Assembly: GCF_029227855.1 (NCBI RefSeq)
Contig: NZ_CP074356.1
DNA length: 64,000 nt
Source: Escherichia coli
GTDB taxonomy: Bacteria; Pseudomonadota; Gammaproteobacteria; Enterobacterales; Enterobacteriaceae
Reading direction: 5' to 3' (one strand)
Each line of letters begins with the position of its first letter. The first letter of the stretch is position 1. The notes beneath the pieces were generated by a model that was given only the letters and a program-made list of their open reading frames with translations, did not search any database and was not told the origin of the DNA. Both the position numbers and the translations under genes were made by a program. Shown here one piece after another: positions 46,588-61,050 of the stretch.

Positions 46588-47184
46588 ATGGTTGGTGTTA
46601 CTCAAAGGTCAGGGAATTACTCACGTAATGTGCAGGTGGTTGTCGATTCTAACTCTGTTGATATTATAAAGTCTCCATCGATTTTTATGGATCTTGTTGG
46701 TATTTTAGTTGATTCGAATGTTATTGATCCTCGTACAAACAATGACTACGAGCCATATGATATTGAGAATAAAATAGACTTCAATGATGTTATAAAACAT
46801 AGAGAACGTATTGAAGGGTTCTATCTATATTCTTCGATGATAGATAAAGCGTATGAAACATTAAATGAAAGTATGCCTACTGCTAAGGAAACGGCACTGA
46901 AAAGCATCAATTCACGATATCTTGATTGTCAAGGAGATTTATTGCTTAAACATAGAGAAGCGTATAAGAGCTGCAAGGATGCTCAGGAACGGAATAATTT
47001 AAAGATTCAATTGGTAAGAGAGTTTGCAGATTGGATAATAGACAGTGTAATAGAGCACATCATTAAGAAATGCTTAAATTCTCTTATGGCAATGAATTAC
47101 ACAAGCGAAGAAATCGAATGCCATGCTTCTTTTATCGTTTATCATGCATTCGTAGAGTGTAAGATTCTGGAAAAACCAATATGA
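46588..47184 (+). CDS. hypothetical protein (198 aa), second gene of the AT-rich cassette
   Basis: ATG 46588 with GAGG SD; stop overlaps the next start (ATGA); no motif I recognise. Confidence 0.65.
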   Translation: MVGVTQRSGNYSRNVQVVVDSNSVDIIKSPSIFMDLVGILVDSNVIDPRTNNDYEPYDIENKIDFNDVIKHRERIEGFYLYSSMIDKAYETLNESMPTAKETALKSINSRYLDCQGDLLLKHREAYKSCKDAQERNNLKIQLVREFADWIIDSVIEHIIKKCLNSLMAMNYTSEEIECHASFIVYHAFVECKILEKPI

Positions 47185-47417
47185 TTATCTCTGATGTAAC
47201 AAAACCAAGCCAAACCTTGTATTACCTGGGAGCTCGGTTATTAGAATGCATGAGTTCAAATGCTTATTCGTATGTTGATATTATAGACTTGTATAATGAA
47301 TTCAAATCTAAAAATAACAACTCTTCATTCACGCAATATATTTACACTTTAAATTGGCTATATTTATTAGGCCTGGTTGATGCTAACGAAAATGGAGATT
47401 TGATATTATGTTTTTGA
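47181..47417 (+). CDS. hypothetical small protein (78 aa), third gene of the AT-rich cassette
   Basis: ATG 47181 overlapping the upstream stop; 3' end overlaps the ATPase start by 10 nt. Confidence 0.6.
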   Translation: MIISDVTKPSQTLYYLGARLLECMSSNAYSYVDIIDLYNEFKSKNNNSSFTQYIYTLNWLYLLGLVDANENGDLILCF

Positions 47418-49132
47418 AACGGCTAATAGTCAGTTCTTTCAGGCTTGGAGTGATTCGTGATATCGAATTTCACATTGGCGTTAATTTGATTATTGACCGA
47501 AACACCTCCAGCAAAGAGCAAACTGGAAATGGTGTGGGAAAAACTACTGTATTAAGAGCTTTAGATTTTTGTTTTGGAGCAGAACAACTGAATTTTTATA
47601 CCGATCCTGAATTCAAGAAAGAAAATTCGGTTATAAAAAATTATTTGATAGAGAACGAGATTGAGTTTTGTTTAATTCTCACAAAAGATTTGAATAATAA
47701 AACTGCACCAGTAATAAAAATTAAGCGTAAAATTACATCTGAGACTAATAAAACGAAGGTTATAGCCTCAATAAATGAAGAGTCCTATACGAAGGCTAAA
47801 GATTTCAACGAGGCTTTAAAAAGAACATTATATCTTGATTCCGCGATAAAACCGACCATACGAGAGATTATGGGACGTGTTATTCGAAATACGCATGACA
47901 AGATGTCGAACGCATTAAAAACGATAAAAATGGGTTCTAATACACAATATGAAACGTTAAATCTGTTTATGTTTGGGTTCGGTAACTCACAGATTCTGGA
48001 TGAAAAACAGTCAGTGACTAAAGCCTATAAACTGGCGAAATCCGATTATGAAGTAATTACTCGCCATCGCTCAAAGAATGCTTTGGAACAAGCTATTGCA
48101 ATTATAAATAGAGATATTATAGCACAAGAAGAGTTAATTTCTAATTTTCAAGTGGCAGACTCTTATAATGATATGCTTGCTGAGTTAAATGAGTTAAAAA
48201 TTAAAATTAGTGAAGTTTCTATCACACTATCATCTTTGGAGTTTAAGCAAAAATTAAACGATAAGGCTATACTAGATCTGGAAAAAAGTCATGAAAATAT
48301 AAATACACTAGATCTACAGAAGTTGTACTTAGAAGCAACTGATCGGTTAGGTAACTTAAACAAAGAGTTTACTGAGCTACTTTCGTTTCATAATAAAATG
48401 CTTGTAAAAAAAGCTGAGTTTATTAGAAAACAAATGCAGCCAGTGCTGCAAGAAATTTCCAAATATAAAGATGAACTAAATAATTTATTGACTCAAGAAT
48501 CAGAGCTTTTAAAGAGTTTGTCTTCGCATGGGACATTGGCAGACCTGCAAATAATGCAAAAAAAATTAAATTCATTATTTGAAGAAAAAGGTGGGCTTGA
48601 AGCTGGACTACTTCAAATCCAAGAGATGGAGAACAACTTTAATATACTGAAAGCAAAGTTTAATGATGTGTCAGATAGATTAAAATCTAAACTTGACGAT
48701 TTTAACAAACGTCTTGCGCTATTCAATTCCTATTTTTCTTTATATACTAAAAAATTATATCAGGATGAATATATTCTTTCCTATAAAGATTCCTCCGGTT
48801 CTTTCGTTTTTACCATTGAACCTTTAGGAACTTTGCTCACATCAGGTAATCAGGGAGAAGGAAAAAAGAAAGCCCAGGTTGCCTCTTTAGATTTTGCCTA
48901 TTTATCTGTCCAGGAGTCTTTAGAAGCCAGAACACCACGTTTTATAGCTCATGATGGAATTGAGGCAATTCATGTAAATCAAATAAATAAGTTATTCGAG
49001 ATAGCTTCGGGGATTAATGGTCAATATATATTGGCTATTCTTAAAGACAAGTTGGAGAATATTGATCAAGACTTCATCAATAATAGTGTTGTGCTTGAGC
49101 TTGGGGAGGACGATAAGTTTTTTAGGCTTTAA
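47408..49132 (+). CDS. SMC/Rad50/ABC-type coiled-coil ATPase (574 aa), fourth gene of the AT-rich cassette
   Basis: N-terminal P-loop TGNGVGKTTVLRALDFCFG (RecF/SMC-type Walker A); ~300-aa heptad-rich central region; C-terminal TSGNQGEG (signature-like) followed by RFIAHDGIEAIH (Walker-B/D-loop-like); GGAG SD. Confidence 0.8.
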   Translation: MFLKRLIVSSFRLGVIRDIEFHIGVNLIIDRNTSSKEQTGNGVGKTTVLRALDFCFGAEQLNFYTDPEFKKENSVIKNYLIENEIEFCLILTKDLNNKTAPVIKIKRKITSETNKTKVIASINEESYTKAKDFNEALKRTLYLDSAIKPTIREIMGRVIRNTHDKMSNALKTIKMGSNTQYETLNLFMFGFGNSQILDEKQSVTKAYKLAKSDYEVITRHRSKNALEQAIAIINRDIIAQEELISNFQVADSYNDMLAELNELKIKISEVSITLSSLEFKQKLNDKAILDLEKSHENINTLDLQKLYLEATDRLGNLNKEFTELLSFHNKMLVKKAEFIRKQMQPVLQEISKYKDELNNLLTQESELLKSLSSHGTLADLQIMQKKLNSLFEEKGGLEAGLLQIQEMENNFNILKAKFNDVSDRLKSKLDDFNKRLALFNSYFSLYTKKLYQDEYILSYKDSSGSFVFTIEPLGTLLTSGNQGEGKKKAQVASLDFAYLSVQESLEARTPRFIAHDGIEAIHVNQINKLFEIASGINGQYILAILKDKLENIDQDFINNSVVLELGEDDKFFRL

Positions 49133-56875: not shown

Positions 56876-57340
56876 ATGAAACCGGTTCTGTATGCGGTGA
56901 TTGTTATTCTACTGGTGGTCAGTGGTGCGCTGTTGCTGGCAATAGCCCATTACCGCGATAATGCCATCATCTACAAAGAGCAGAGAGATGATGCGAAGAC
57001 AAAACTCAGCCAGGCGAACGCAGCCATTACTGACATGCAGCAGCGCCAGCGTGATGTTACTGCACTCGATGCAAAATACCTGAAGGAATTAGCTGATGCG
57101 AAAGCTGAAAATGATGCTCTTCGTGATGATATTGCCGCTGGTCGTCGTCGGTTGCACATCAGAGCAGTCTGTCAGAGCGTGCGTGAAGCCACCGCCGCCT
57201 CCGGCGTGGGTAATGCAGCCGCCCCCCGACTGGCAGACACCGCTGAACGGGATTATTTCACCCTCAGAGAGCGACTGATAATAATGCAAAAACAACTTGA
57301 AGGGGCACAGCTATACATTCGAGAGCAATGCCTCAGATAA
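56876..57340 (+). CDS. rzpQ: i-spanin Rz (about 154 aa)
   Basis: ORF 56780..57340; ATG 56876 ([26 protein letters not shown]...); N-terminal TM helix plus coiled-coil periplasmic domain. Confidence 0.8.
57096..57278 (+). CDS. o-spanin Rz1 lipoprotein (60 aa), embedded in Rz in the +1 frame
   Basis: ORF track 60 aa [24 protein letters not shown]...; lipobox VVGC; proline-rich ([15 protein letters not shown]). Confidence 0.78.
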
Positions 57341-57657
57341 AAACCGGCCAAGGATAATCCGCTGAAGATTCGCCGGGGCTAGAGAGAGCCAAAGCTTTAA
57401 TTGACACCATTACTCATAGCAAGGCAATGCATCGTTTTTATGAGGTCAATAGATGCCTGATTTATTTCTGTGCTCCGTATCGTCGCTGTATTCCTTCGTT
57501 AACCATGAGTGTAGTCCGACGGGGAGCACGAGTGTATGGGAATAATAAAAAAAGATACACACCTGGGTTTACCGCTTTTATGCTTCGCGGGTTTGCTCTT
57601 CATGCAGCTAGTCCGGTACAGAGGTGTATGAAACCGGACTGCTGATTTAATTAATTC

Positions 57658-58062
57658 CTATATTAATGGTCTGTTATTTTCAACATCTTCCATGTACAAA
57701 AGATCGTGATCAAACGAATAGTAAAACCTTATGTTTTTATCTATATCTGTAATCCAGCGATAAACACCTGCTTTTGCTAAAGTGAGACGATATTGATGAA
57801 ATGTAGATTTACCTGATATAAGATTTCTGGCTGCTTCTTTAATTAATTCTGGTTTCTTTGATGTGCTAACTTTCACAAGTCCTCTACTGCCTCGAACTAA
57901 TAAAATATTATCATCATGAGTAATTAGTCTTATATTATCAGTAGCCAGATAATAAATATAATGCGCAATATTATGGCGTTTTAATTCGGAGTAAAACCAT
58001 GGGAAGTATAAATTACTTCTAACGTGTTCGAATATCTCTTGAAAAATATCTGCCTGCTCCAT
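57658..58062 (-). CDS. hypothetical AT-rich cargo protein (about 134 aa) between lysis and packaging modules
   Basis: ORF 57658..58083 (-, GTG); preferred ATG at 58060-58062 preceded by AAGAGGA; Tyr/aromatic-rich; no recognised motif. Confidence 0.5.
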   Translation of the reverse strand: MEQADIFQEIFEHVRSNLYFPWFYSELKRHNIAHYIYYLATDNIRLITHDDNILLVRGSRGLVKVSTSKKPELIKEAARNLISGKSTFHQYRLTLAKAGVYRWITDIDKNIRFYYSFDHDLLYMEDVENNRPLI

Positions 58063-58218
58063 CAGGAAATATCCTCTTGTCACTGCTACTTCTTACCATG
58101 AGCTTAGATAGTTTGCATGATTTGTTCTCTCACATCAATCTGATCCGACCTCATTGAGGTGGGCGTTGTGAATACCTGATAAGAAATGTGGGTCCTCCCA
58201 ATGGGGGAGGCTGGCACG

Positions 58219-58230
58219 GGGCGGGAGCGT
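58219..58230. other. candidate cohesive-end (cosN-like) site
   Basis: GGGCGGGAGCGT-CGCGG resembles the lambda cos start GGGCGGCGACCT-CGCGG; ~185 bp upstream of the terminase small subunit; next to palindrome CCTCCCaatgGGGGAGG. Confidence 0.3.
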
Positions 58231-58414
58231 CGCGGAAAAAGGCTAGTTTTTGCATTTCCATGGCGGCGGCAGCATGTTTGGTAATTTATTGATAATTAAA
58301 AGTTATTTCCCTTTTCACCTGTACAATATTTTTTTCTTCCTGTCATTAGACCAGTTTGCAATTAATTGAAATATATAAATAAACCTGATTTTCACCTGCC
58401 AGATGGAGTTGCTT

Positions 58415-58942
58415 ATGTCAAATGTGAGCGGGATCGGTGATGCTTATTACTGGAGTGTTTTTAAAATCGCCGAGGCCTTTGGGCTTCACCGGGACACAGT
58501 AAAAAAACGGCTCCTCGCGGCCAACACTCCTGTGGCTGCGACTGTCAGGGGGAACCCCGTTTACGCCCTGCAGCATGTCGGGCCCGCCCTGTTTAGTGTG
58601 AAGCATGAGGCAGCAGACTCTGTTCATGATCCATCCCGTATGGAGCCGAAAGAGAGAAAGGACTGGTACCAGTCTGAAAATGAAAGGATCAAGCTGGAAA
58701 AGGAGCAGCGAAAACTCATCCCAGTTGATGAAGTAGTCATCGTCTATTCGTCCATGAGAAAGGCTGTCGTCCAGGTTCTGGAGACAATTCCGGATGTTCT
58801 TGAACGCGATTGCGCTCTGACTCCTCAGGCCGTCGGCGTTGTACAGCAGGCCATTGATGACCTGCGATACACTCTTCAGGAAAAATCCTACGAGGCTTGT
58901 GCTGCTGAATTAATTCCTGATGAGGAAGGAGAGAGTCTCTAG
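58415..58942 (+). CDS. terminase small subunit (about 175 aa)
   Basis: ORF 58403..58942; ATG 58415 after GGAG; N-terminal HTH-like segment; directly precedes the large subunit. Confidence 0.75.
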   Translation: MSNVSGIGDAYYWSVFKIAEAFGLHRDTVKKRLLAANTPVAATVRGNPVYALQHVGPALFSVKHEAADSVHDPSRMEPKERKDWYQSENERIKLEKEQRKLIPVDEVVIVYSSMRKAVVQVLETIPDVLERDCALTPQAVGVVQQAIDDLRYTLQEKSYEACAAELIPDEEGESL

Positions 58943-58950
58943 GAGGAATA

Positions 58951-61050
58951 ATGGGTTTTTCATCAGCCCGAAATTTGGGAAGGGACATATCGGCAGGATT
59001 TTCCCCACCACGTCGCATGCCGATTTCGGAGGCTGTTAAAAAATTCATGCGTGTTCCCAAGGGGGCTGGTAACTCGGTGCCATGGGATCCTGAACTGACA
59101 CCCTACATCATTGAGCCCATGAACTGCCTGGCATCGCGTGAATACGATGCGGTGATTTTTGTTGGTCCTGCGCGAACAGGGAAGACCATTGGTCTGATCG
59201 ATGGATGGATTGTCTATACCATCGTTTGCGATCCTTCGGACATGCTCGTTGTGCAGATGACCGAAGATAAGGCCCGCGAGCATTCTAAAAAGCGCCTCGA
59301 CAGAACGTTCAGAAGCAGTGCGGCGGTAAAGAAAAGAATGAGTCCACGTCGTAACGACAATAATGTCCATGATAAGAAGTTCAGGGATGGCTCGTTCCTT
59401 AAAATTGGTTGGCCCTCGGTCAACATTATGTCGTCGTCGGATTACCGGTTTGTCGCCTTAACCGATTACGACCGTTTTCCGGAGAATATCGACAGCGAGG
59501 GTGATGGTTTCTCCCTGGCCTCAAAACGTACCACCACATTTATGTCCGCCGGGATGACTCTGGTGGAGAGCTCGCCGGGACGTGACATCTGCGACAGCAA
59601 ATGGCGACGTAAGTCGCCTCATGAAGCGCCACCGACGACTGGTATTCTTTCCCTTTACAATCGTGGTGACCGCCGCCGCTGGTACTGGCCATGTCCGCAC
59701 TGCGGTGAATATTTTCAGCCAGCTATGGATGCCATGACCGGCTACCGTAATGAACCGGATCCCTTTAAAGCCAGTGAGGCGGCGTATCTACTTTGCCCGC
59801 ACTGCAGCGGCATTATCACTGCGGAGAAAAAGCGTGAGCTCAATAGTGCAGGAGTCTGGTTGCGTGAAGGTCAGGTCATTGATCGTAACGGCAACGTTTC
59901 CGGTGAACCGCGCCGCTCCCGTATCGCCAGTTTCTGGATGGAAGGGCCAGCTGCTGCGTATCAGACCTGGGCGCAACTGGTTTACAAATTACTGACTGCA
60001 GAACAGGAGTATGAAGCGACAGGAAGCGAAGAAACACTCAGGGCGGTTATCAACACCGACTGGGGATTGCCTTATCTTCCTCGTGCCAGCATGGAGCAAC
60101 GAAAAAGTGAACTGCTTGAGCAGCGGGCAGAGCCAGTTCCTTCCTGCAGTGTGCCGGATGGCGTTAATTTCCTTGTGGCGACAGTGGATGTGCAGGCGGG
60201 ACGTCATCGCCGTTTTGTGGTTCAGGTAACTGGCTATGGCAGTCGTGGCGAACGCTGGATTATTGATCGTTACAATATCACGCAGTCATTGCGCAGTGAC
60301 TGCGACGGGGAGAGCCAGCGAATTGATCCGGCCAGCTATCCGGAAGACTGGGATGTCCTGCTGACGGATGTTTTTCATAAAAGCTGGCCGCTGGCCTCCG
60401 ATCCTTCTCAACAAATGCGACTGATGGCAATGGCGGTGGACTCCGGCGGTGAAGACGGGGTCACTGATAATGCCTATAAATTCTGGCGTCGTTGCCGTCG
60501 TGATGGCCTTGGTAAACGTATTTACCTGTTTAAGGGCGACAGCATCCGGCGCGCAAAACTGATCACCCGTACATTCCCTGATAACACCGGACGAACGGGC
60601 CGACGGGCGCAGGCCGCAGGTGATGTGCCGCTCTGGCTTCTTCAGACGGATGCACTGAAAGACCGGGTGAATAACGCGTTATGGCGTGACTCGCCAGGTC
60701 CCGGCTATGTGCATTTCCCTGACTGGCTGGGGAGCTGGTTTTACGACGAACTGACGTATGAAGAGCGGAGCAGTGACGGGAAATGGAGTAAGCCGGGTCG
60801 CGGTGCCAACGAAGCTTTTGACCTGATGGTGTATGCCGAGGCTCTGGTCATTCTGCATGGATACGAAAAGATCCGCTGGCCGGATGCACCGGAGTGGGCG
60901 AGCCGGGAAACCTGGCTGGAGTGTGTCCCGGACAGTACCGAACCGTCACCCTCACCGGAACCGGTATCCACGCCTGTTAAAAAACAAAAACGGAAGAAAA
61001 CAGTAACTGACGATGTTAACCCCTGGCTGACTTCCGGAGGATGGTTATGA
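58951..61050 (+). CDS. terminase large subunit (699 aa)
   Basis: ORF track 699 aa; AGGAGG SD; Walker A VGPARTGKT; lambda gpA-like layout. Confidence 0.92.
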   Translation: MGFSSARNLGRDISAGFSPPRRMPISEAVKKFMRVPKGAGNSVPWDPELTPYIIEPMNCLASREYDAVIFVGPARTGKTIGLIDGWIVYTIVCDPSDMLVVQMTEDKAREHSKKRLDRTFRSSAAVKKRMSPRRNDNNVHDKKFRDGSFLKIGWPSVNIMSSSDYRFVALTDYDRFPENIDSEGDGFSLASKRTTTFMSAGMTLVESSPGRDICDSKWRRKSPHEAPPTTGILSLYNRGDRRRWYWPCPHCGEYFQPAMDAMTGYRNEPDPFKASEAAYLLCPHCSGIITAEKKRELNSAGVWLREGQVIDRNGNVSGEPRRSRIASFWMEGPAAAYQTWAQLVYKLLTAEQEYEATGSEETLRAVINTDWGLPYLPRASMEQRKSELLEQRAEPVPSCSVPDGVNFLVATVDVQAGRHRRFVVQVTGYGSRGERWIIDRYNITQSLRSDCDGESQRIDPASYPEDWDVLLTDVFHKSWPLASDPSQQMRLMAMAVDSGGEDGVTDNAYKFWRRCRRDGLGKRIYLFKGDSIRRAKLITRTFPDNTGRTGRRAQAAGDVPLWLLQTDALKDRVNNALWRDSPGPGYVHFPDWLGSWFYDELTYEERSSDGKWSKPGRGANEAFDLMVYAEALVILHGYEKIRWPDAPEWASRETWLECVPDSTEPSPSPEPVSTPVKKQKRKKTVTDDVNPWLTSGGWL

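Follow-up and report, generated by a model that had tools for sequence, protein, structure and literature searches.

Does the intergenic DNA in front of the terminase genes of this Escherichia coli prophage contain a lambda-type cohesive-end (cos) site, and does the palindrome beside it belong to that site? An original prediction had proposed a candidate cos site and an adjacent palindrome upstream of the terminase genes. At a cos site, the phage terminase cleaves replicated DNA and so generates the sticky ends. Here, the window denotes the whole 64,000-nt (64-kb) stretch of DNA that was analysed, and bp numbers count rightward from 58219, where the presumed overhang starts. From the sequence anatomy, the pattern of conservation, the gene families and a match to deposited genome ends, we conclude with high confidence that the region 58190-58402 is the cos of a complete lambdoid prophage whose packaging and head module is of the Gifsy-2/cdtI/Tritos type. 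The cos part of the prediction is borne out by the deposited cdtI and Tritos records, which open at the equivalent of 58219, by the lambda cosQ heptamer 29 bp upstream and by a large terminase of the gpA family.

Prophage context and deposited phage genome ends

The window is a 100% match to E. coli WP2-W18-ESBL-08 (NZ_AP021933.1), from whose annotation the gene order was taken. The left part of the prophage comprises integrase, excisionase, exonuclease, repressor/Cro, Q and lysis genes, a minus-strand DUF1398 gene and the cos intergenic region; to the right of cos lie genes for a DUF1441 protein, the large terminase, adaptor, portal, a ClpP-protease/capsid fusion, tail proteins, J, Lom and a tail fibre. 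A PICI cos, in which cosQ-cosN is followed by rpp and terS/terL are lacking, is ruled out, as TerS, TerL, adaptor, portal and head genes follow directly.

Megablast of 58084-58420 against phage records placed base 1 of both the cdtI (AB285204/NC_009514) and the Tritos (OV696610) record at query base 136, that is, at window position 58219. The two records start with GGGCGGGAGCGTCGCGGAAAAAGGCTAG, with GGGCGGGAGCGTCGCGGAAAAAGG identical to the window, and both end in ...CCACG. Alignment to the cos sites of related phages, which had been proposed as a check on the site, returns the identical 12-mer at the record starts of these two phages. The left-end DNA from bp 1 to 2832 is 99.1% (cdtI) and 99.7% (Tritos) identical to the window. 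Tritos, which resides in E. coli LF82 as prophage 3, forms virions and plaques (PMC9928086); the paper describing it contains no discussion of the virion ends, and the record start coordinates of cdtI and Tritos may reflect analogy with lambda and not a measurement. In mEp460_4F5, a more distant relative, the record opens 4 bp to the left of the 58219 equivalent (CCACG/GGGCGGGAGCG). A literature search for the 12-mer on either strand and for related variants returned unrelated papers only.

Anatomy of cosQ and cosN

The heptamer GGGTCCT at 58190-58196 on the plus strand is identical to that at lambda 48473-48479, which we take to be the coordinates of lambda cosQ. It lies 29 bp from the predicted nick in the window, compared with 30 bp in lambda. 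In lambda, cosQ is the packaging-termination signal and is required for bottom-strand nicking at the downstream cos (PMC4669245, PMC4856287).

The cosN segment CG/GGGCGGGAGCGT/CG spans 58217-58232 and was assigned from the record starts of cdtI and Tritos and from its likeness to lambda; in context it reads ACG/GGGCGGGAGCGT/CGCGG. The cosN-like sequence followed by CGCGG on which the original prediction was built is indeed present, with GGGCGGGAGCGT at 58219-58230 and CGCGG at 58231-58235. We infer a top-strand nick between 58218 and 58219 and a bottom-strand nick between 58230 and 58231, which would leave 12-nt 5' overhangs corresponding to 58219-58230.

Compared with the lambda overhang GGGCGGCGACCT, GGGCGGGAGCGT is identical at 8 of 12 positions, including all six of the left half, with differences at bp 7, 8, 9 and 11, and the CG flanks of lambda cosN are kept. 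Variation among lambda-like cohesive ends falls mainly within bp 7-12, with strong conservation of the 7-bp cosQ (Feiss et al., PMC4669245); the window site fits this pattern, having the same cosQ as lambda and all four of its overhang differences within bp 7-12. In the 16-bp cosN, rotational symmetry extends to 8 of 16 positions, both CG flanks among them, and is weaker than that of lambda, for which the same script reproduces the published figure of 10/16 (PMC9026076). The overhang geometry can vary in the family, since ACG and CGCGG lie 10-11 bp apart in some relatives.

Likeness to lambda cosN was dropped as stand-alone evidence, because the best window match to the lambda 24-mer GTTACGGGGCGGCGACCTCGCGGG has 7 mismatches, which is within chance for 64 kb: it was equalled or bettered in 58 of 200 Markov-simulated windows. 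Likewise, the lambda cosN 20-mer has no match with three or fewer mismatches within the 64-kb window. The lambda-derived composite of both elements, GGGTCCT N{15,35} ACGGGGCGG, has a single match in the window (58190-58224), whereas 100 dinucleotide shuffles gave no match.

Spread of the site and its overhang variants

To survey relatives, viral contigs were scanned with the pattern GGGTCCT N{19,25} ACGGGGCGG N{4,6} CGCGG, which returned at least 120 stretches; GGGTCCT is built into the pattern and hence present in all of them. Among the matches listed and the named phages, there are at least 15 overhang variants, the commonest being lambda GGGCGGCGACCT with at least 73 sites, followed by GGGCGGGAGCGT with at least 27. 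Relatives of the window segment are present in 2122 of 5426 complete E. coli genomes. Among the matches listed, similarity to the E. coli relatives starts at query base 104-107 (58187-58190), the left edge of cosQ, and the DNA to the left of this boundary is mosaic.

The palindrome in the cosQ-cosN spacer

The predicted palindrome CCTCCC-AATGG-GGGAGG, at 58194-58210, is a perfect 6-bp inverted repeat with arms CCTCCC (58194-58199) and GGGAGG (58205-58210) around the loop AATGG, and is judged incidental here. The repeat itself thus stands, but not as a conserved neighbour of the site: its left arm covers the last 3 bases of cosQ, the remainder lies in the cosQ-cosN spacer, and the perfect 6-bp stem is unique to the window among 47 distinct cosQ-to-nick segments, the others having best stems of 2-5 bp that are mostly located elsewhere (for example, GTGG/CCAC near cosN).

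A function of its own for the palindrome, either as a protein-binding dyad or as a hairpin or cruciform that aids cosQ-dependent termination or blocks transcription across cos, would accord with the position of a perfect G+C-rich dyad between cosQ and cosN and with the folding of the segment 58185-58240, which is somewhat better than that of shuffles (z = -2.2). It would also accord with the many relatives that carry a C-run and then a G-run at the same place (CCTCCCGGTGGGGTGG), forming an imperfect dyad with the register shifted by one base. We nevertheless consider such a function very improbable. The palindrome is absent from cdtI, Tritos and HannyBb, whose best perfect stems are 3-4 bp at other positions despite identical TerS and cosN, and in some of the GAGCGT class a G-run is missing altogether (for example, CCTCCCGGCAGTGTGTCC). 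Perfect 6-bp-stem hairpins with 3-8-nt loops are also frequent, with 131 in the window, 28 of which have a stem at least as G+C-rich, and the palindrome, with a folding z-score of only -1.6, does not rise above chance. An intrinsic (Rho-independent) terminator is ruled out, because no T-run follows the stem, which continues into CTGGCACGGGG; no terminator-like site was detected in 57300-58500.

The survey of the 47 variants also rules out a conserved dyad. Given the 131 such hairpins in the window and its absence from the 46 other segment variants, the palindrome is probably no functional element but an accident of the spacer variant of this prophage. Constraint on the spacer acts on its length (29-31 bp) and on its two ends (GGGTCCTYYC... 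and ...CACG), and the presence of a palindrome next to cos requires no explanation.

A conserved cosN-proximal block followed by type-specific cosB sequences

Immediately to the right of the predicted overhang, at 58231-58252 on the plus strand, lies the cosN-proximal block CGCGGAAAAAGGCTAGTTTTTG, which occupies the position of lambda I2 and contains an A5 tract at bp 18-22 and a T5 tract at bp 29-33. Across 22 distinct members of the GAGCGT class, this block hardly varies, regardless of their cosB/TerS type, and phage Cr-LKS3 has a similar one, CGCGGAAGTCGGCAGTTTTTCGGG, after its overhang. In lambda, I2 is an AT-rich static bend spanning approximately bp 18-50, without which an early step of packaging fails (PMC4856287).

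The adjoining AT-rich, type-specific segment at 58253-58402 (plus strand) is the presumed TerS recognition region, cosB, here of a type that we designate A. From approximately bp 35, the GAGCGT class splits into three cosB types, each of which comes with its own DUF1441 TerS (~42% identity): type A in the window, cdtI, Tritos and HannyBb, type B in PhiR40_1-like phages and type C in mEp460-like phages. The split spans the position of lambda R3, bp 50-65 (PMC9026076), which corresponds to 58268-58283 within the window cosB.

An exact match to the IHF consensus TATCAATAAATTA (WATCAANNNNTTR) is located at 58282-58294 on the minus strand and is a candidate equivalent of lambda I1. Exact matches number 8 in the 64 kb, against 3.75 expected. 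Across 38 distinct DUF1441-type cosBs, the full consensus occurs at bp 61-64 in 19, and a TTGAT core is seen 33 times at bp 65-71; the TGAT core at bp 65-71 is kept in all three cosB types, and its alignment columns are invariant. In type C, a perfect 11-bp inverted repeat surrounds the IHF core.

Self-alignment of the window cosB reveals an imperfect direct repeat of approximately 56 bp, with 33 of 56 positions identical at a 77-bp offset, compared with a maximum of 32 in 300 shuffles. Copy 1 (GTAATTTATTGA ... CTTTTCACCTG) lies at 58281-58321 and copy 2 (GCAATTAATTGA ... ATTTTCACCTG) at 58358-58398, both on the plus strand; that they are TerS-binding repeats is speculative. A lambda-style set of R3, I1, inverted R2 and R1 was not found in type A cosB by the same script that recovers R3, R2 and R1 of lambda. 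Complex cosBs carry repeated TerS-binding R sequences in the order R3-I1-R2-R1, and that of N15 has a single R3.

The DUF1441-type cosB may conceivably have an architecture unlike the R3-I1-R2-R1 order of lambda, although we propose this only tentatively and think it rather less probable than otherwise: in type A, a conserved IHF site and two ~56-bp direct-repeat units 77 bp apart (GTTTG..AATT.ATTGA ... TTTTCACCTG), with at least three interchangeable cosB/TerS cassettes (A, B and C) on one cosQ-cosN-I2 core. If true, very common E. coli prophages would possess a natural and uncharacterised means of exchanging packaging specificities.

The small and large terminase subunits

The 175-aa TerS, of the DUF1441/Gifsy-2 type, is encoded at 58415-58942 on the plus strand and was assigned by Pfam (DUF1441, E 1.6e-44) and PHROG (141, 'terminase small subunit', E 7.9e-65). 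Its RefSeq start is the ATG at 58415 (bp 197), with an alternative ATG at 58403 (bp 185), and these distances from the first base of the presumed overhang agree with the ~170-200 bp between cos and small terminase gene given in the original prediction. The protein is identical to its cdtI and Tritos counterparts at 175 of 175 residues and shares 40% identity with Gifsy-2 TerS.

At the sequence level, TerS is unsupported as a homologue of Nu1 (BLASTP E 4.6; hhalign probability 10.6%; Pfam assignment to DUF1441), and a PDB sequence search with TerS gave no match. An AlphaFold (AF2) model built from 11 family members has a mean pLDDT of 75 and reaches ~80-85 in the N-terminal domain, in which a predicted strand, two helices, a beta-hairpin wing and a further helix precede long helices, as expected for an N-terminal winged helix-turn-helix (wHTH). 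Foldseek matched this domain to MerR-like wHTH proteins (RacA, BldC and the MerR family) and to a 54-residue chain from a study of a viral DNA-packaging motor (7lwr); the matches to wHTH domains of ~50 residues have probabilities of 0.97-1.0 and TM-scores of ~0.6-0.7. A chain from the Rpp-TerS complex (6hn7) was matched less well, with a probability of 0.69 and a TM-score of 0.47, and every Foldseek E-value was >0.01. Small terminases of the lambda gpNu1 type have a MerR-like wHTH at the N-terminus, followed by helical regions for oligomerisation and TerL binding. The predicted MerR-like wHTH fold suggests that TerS probably works like Nu1, and the lack of significant sequence similarity places it outside the Nu1 sequence family.

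The 699-aa TerL, encoded at 58951-61050 on the plus strand, belongs to the lambda gpA family by Pfam and comprises an ATPase (GpA_ATPase, 3.1e-81) and an endonuclease (GpA_nuclease, 2.3e-86), with PF05876 and PF20454 far above their cut-offs. It is 24% identical to lambda gpA over ~630 aa (E 3e-22) and matches the cdtI and Tritos proteins at 694 and 697 of 699 residues, respectively.

A model for packaging and its alternatives

By analogy with lambda, TerS (58415-58942) would bind the type-specific cosB (~58253-58402), assisted by IHF, which would bend the DNA at 58282-58294, and by the segment with A/T tracts (58236-58252). The gpA-family TerL would thereby be positioned to introduce staggered nicks in cosN, cutting the top strand at 58218/58219 and the bottom strand at 58230/58231 and generating the 12-nt 5' overhangs GGGCGGGAGCGT. 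Packaging would then proceed rightward into the terminase and head genes until the following cos on the concatemer is reached; there, the bottom-strand nick would require cosQ (58190-58196). The exact nick positions, the binding of TerS and IHF and the role of cosQ are carried over from lambda by this analogy. The model predicts lambda-type unique cohesive ends, not headful packaging, and in practical terms sets the origin and direction of packaging of the prophage, with 58219 as the coordinate at which to open the phage genome.

The resemblance to lambda cosN could instead have arisen by chance, with packaging being headful (pac) or starting from a cos elsewhere. The cosN-only match, being within chance for 64 kb, and the absence of a Nu1 homologue by sequence would be compatible with this, but it appears extremely improbable in view of the composite cosQ and cosN pattern that is missing from all shuffles, the block kept from cosQ rightward in thousands of genomes, the coincidence of deposited genome ends with the site and the membership of TerL in the gpA family. 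Moreover, phage Cr-LKS3, which has a TerS of the same family, is reported to have 5' cohesive ends (PMC9303873), and its record starts at the homologous position. A different concern is that the site could be a relic in a defective prophage, no longer cut or packaged, as the cryptic state is common among E. coli lambdoid prophages. This is also very unlikely: every cos sub-site is intact, as are the two terminase genes, with 99-100% identity to their counterparts in the plaque-forming Tritos, and the prophage gene set is present from integrase through J and fibre, with ydfB as the lone annotated pseudogene and none among the structural genes. The reading of 58190-58402 as the cos site of a complete prophage is therefore retained.

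Comparison with known packaging systems

The cos site of the window is an ordinary one and effectively already known, as two deposited phage genomes have essentially the same ends and the site falls within the well-described family of lambda-like cos sites. The closest relatives, cdtI and Tritos, have the same GGGCGGGAGCGT, the same cosB type, an identical TerS and a nearly identical TerL. They differ from the window at 5-7 positions of the 22-bp cosQ-cosN spacer, which leaves the perfect palindrome in the window only, and their DNA to the left of cosQ is unrelated, with other genes in place of the DUF1398 gene of the window.

Lambda cos (cosQ-cosN-I2-cosB, with R3, I1, R2 and R1 in cosB) shares with the window the order and spacing of sub-sites, an identical cosQ, the left half of the overhang, the CG flanks, a segment with A/T tracts to the right of cosN, a cosB with an IHF consensus and a gpA-family TerL. 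The small terminase gene starts ~190 bp from the end in both, with the ATG at bp 197 in the window and that of nu1 at bp 191 in lambda. By contrast, the window departs from lambda in the overhang (bp 7, 8, 9 and 11), the cosN symmetry (8/16 versus 10/16) and the distance from cosQ to the nick (29 versus 30 bp), and neither CGTTTCC-type R repeats nor an inverted R2 were recovered from its cosB. Its TerS is a DUF1441 protein with no detectable sequence similarity to lambda Nu1, and its TerL is only 24% identical to gpA.

A more remote parallel is provided by the Cylindrospermopsis phage Cr-LKS3, the phage with 5' cohesive ends according to its authors (PMC9303873). It resembles the window in having a homologous TerS (38% identity), a GGGC left end and CG on both sides of the overhang: the record starts with GGGCTCGCG (GGGC...), preceded by CG and followed by CGCGGAAGTCGGCAGTTTTT, compared with CGCGGAAAAAGGCTAGTTTTT in the window, and a cosQ-like GGGTCCC is located 33 bp upstream of the record start. 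It differs in its overhang, which is 9 nt (GGGCTCGCG) instead of 12, and in its high-GC genome and cyanobacterial host (PMC9303873).

Phages of the mEp213/LLS (putative cos GGGCGGCGCGCT), mEp460 and PhiR40_1 types and the Gifsy-2-type module have in common with the window a DUF1441 TerS at 40-42% identity, cosQ, the spacer length and the cosN-proximal block (PMC12315714). The overhangs of the mEp460 and PhiR40_1 types are the same as that of the window or nearly so (GAGCGT or GAGCGG). A modestly interesting by-product of the analysis is that one cosQ-cosN-I2 core, found in ~40% of complete E. coli genomes, is paired with at least three cosB/TerS combinations from the uncharacterised DUF1441 small-terminase family. 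Types B and C differ from type A of the window in both the cosB sequence and the TerS N-terminus, suggesting different packaging specificities on a common cosQ and cosN. Lambda and phage 21 likewise have cosQ and cosN in common and distinct cosB/TerS specificities (PMC4669245), a situation that the three-type split, judged by this analogy, appears to mirror.

Architecture of cosB

Phages that share cosQ, the overhang GGGCGGGAGCGT and the cosN-proximal block carry three types of cosB (L009, L049 and other loci compared with window 58253-58402). Each type is paired with its own distinct DUF1441 TerS; the three proteins share about 42% identity and begin MSNVSG..., MDHELKNL... and MDRELKNL..., respectively. 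In the mEp460-like cosB (type C), the IHF core is flanked by a perfect 11-bp inverted repeat, ACCACTGTAAT / ATTACAGTGGT.

The cosB of the window contains an imperfect direct repeat of about 56 bp, with copies at 58273-58328 and 58350-58405 (77-bp offset). The copies are identical at 33 of 56 positions, a score equalled in none of 300 shuffles, and their matching segments include GTAATTTATTGA / GCAATTAATTGA and CTTTTCACCTG / ATTTTCACCTG. These direct repeats may serve as TerS-binding repeats, for which they are candidates; their arrangement differs from the R3-I1-R2-R1 order of lambda cosB.

Possible variation at the cohesive ends

In the Stx/O157-type relatives compared, phage 1720a-02 (L010), CP-1639 (L012) and VT1-Sakai (L014), each over about 401-470 of the locus, the gap from ACG to CGCGG is 10-11 bp (GGGCGGGCGG or GGGCGGGCGGG) rather than 12, and 31 bp separate cosQ from the nick. 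The cohesive ends of these relatives may be shorter, or their register may differ. The linear record of mEp460_4F5 (LR595868.1; L015 1-30 and L137 270-300) opens with CCACG|GGGCGGGAGCG-CGG, so that its first base lies 4 bp left of where the nick is predicted, and its overhang is 3 nt short relative to that of mEp460 (GGGCGGGAGCGGCGCGG). This may be an artefact of record assembly or of the opening of the record at the cohesive ends.

Among the matches listed from the cosQ and cosN pattern scan, four viral contigs (L061, L070, L083 and L093) each bear a pair of lambda-type cos sites separated by 2.5-8.6 kb, and in one of the four the two sites lie on opposite strands. Such pairs may represent tandem prophages, cos-bearing satellites (PICI-like) beside prophages, or misassemblies.

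Genes and sequences to the left of cos

A second palindrome, this one imperfect, is found at 58145-58163, some 30 bp to the left of cosQ and flanked by cos and the divergent DUF1398 gene; it reads CCGACCTCA-T-TGAGGTGGG, and its arms are 89% complementary. It falls outside the block conserved in relatives, has a folding z-score of -1.7 and lacks a T-run.

Elsewhere, the prophage encodes homologues of dicB, ydfD, hokD and rem. Genes annotated as 'ABC-three component system' and a DUF2326 protein gene (window about 46588-49132; L007 8505-11049) sit between the replication region and hokD, and may constitute an accessory (defence-type) cassette. The DUF1398 (ybcV-like) gene, on the minus strand at 57658-58083, directly adjoins cos on its left, with its transcription directed away from cos; in PHROGs it is placed in the category 'head protein' (phrog_413). 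Tritos likewise has an annotated ybcV/DUF1398 homologue near its right end, about 870 bp from the end.
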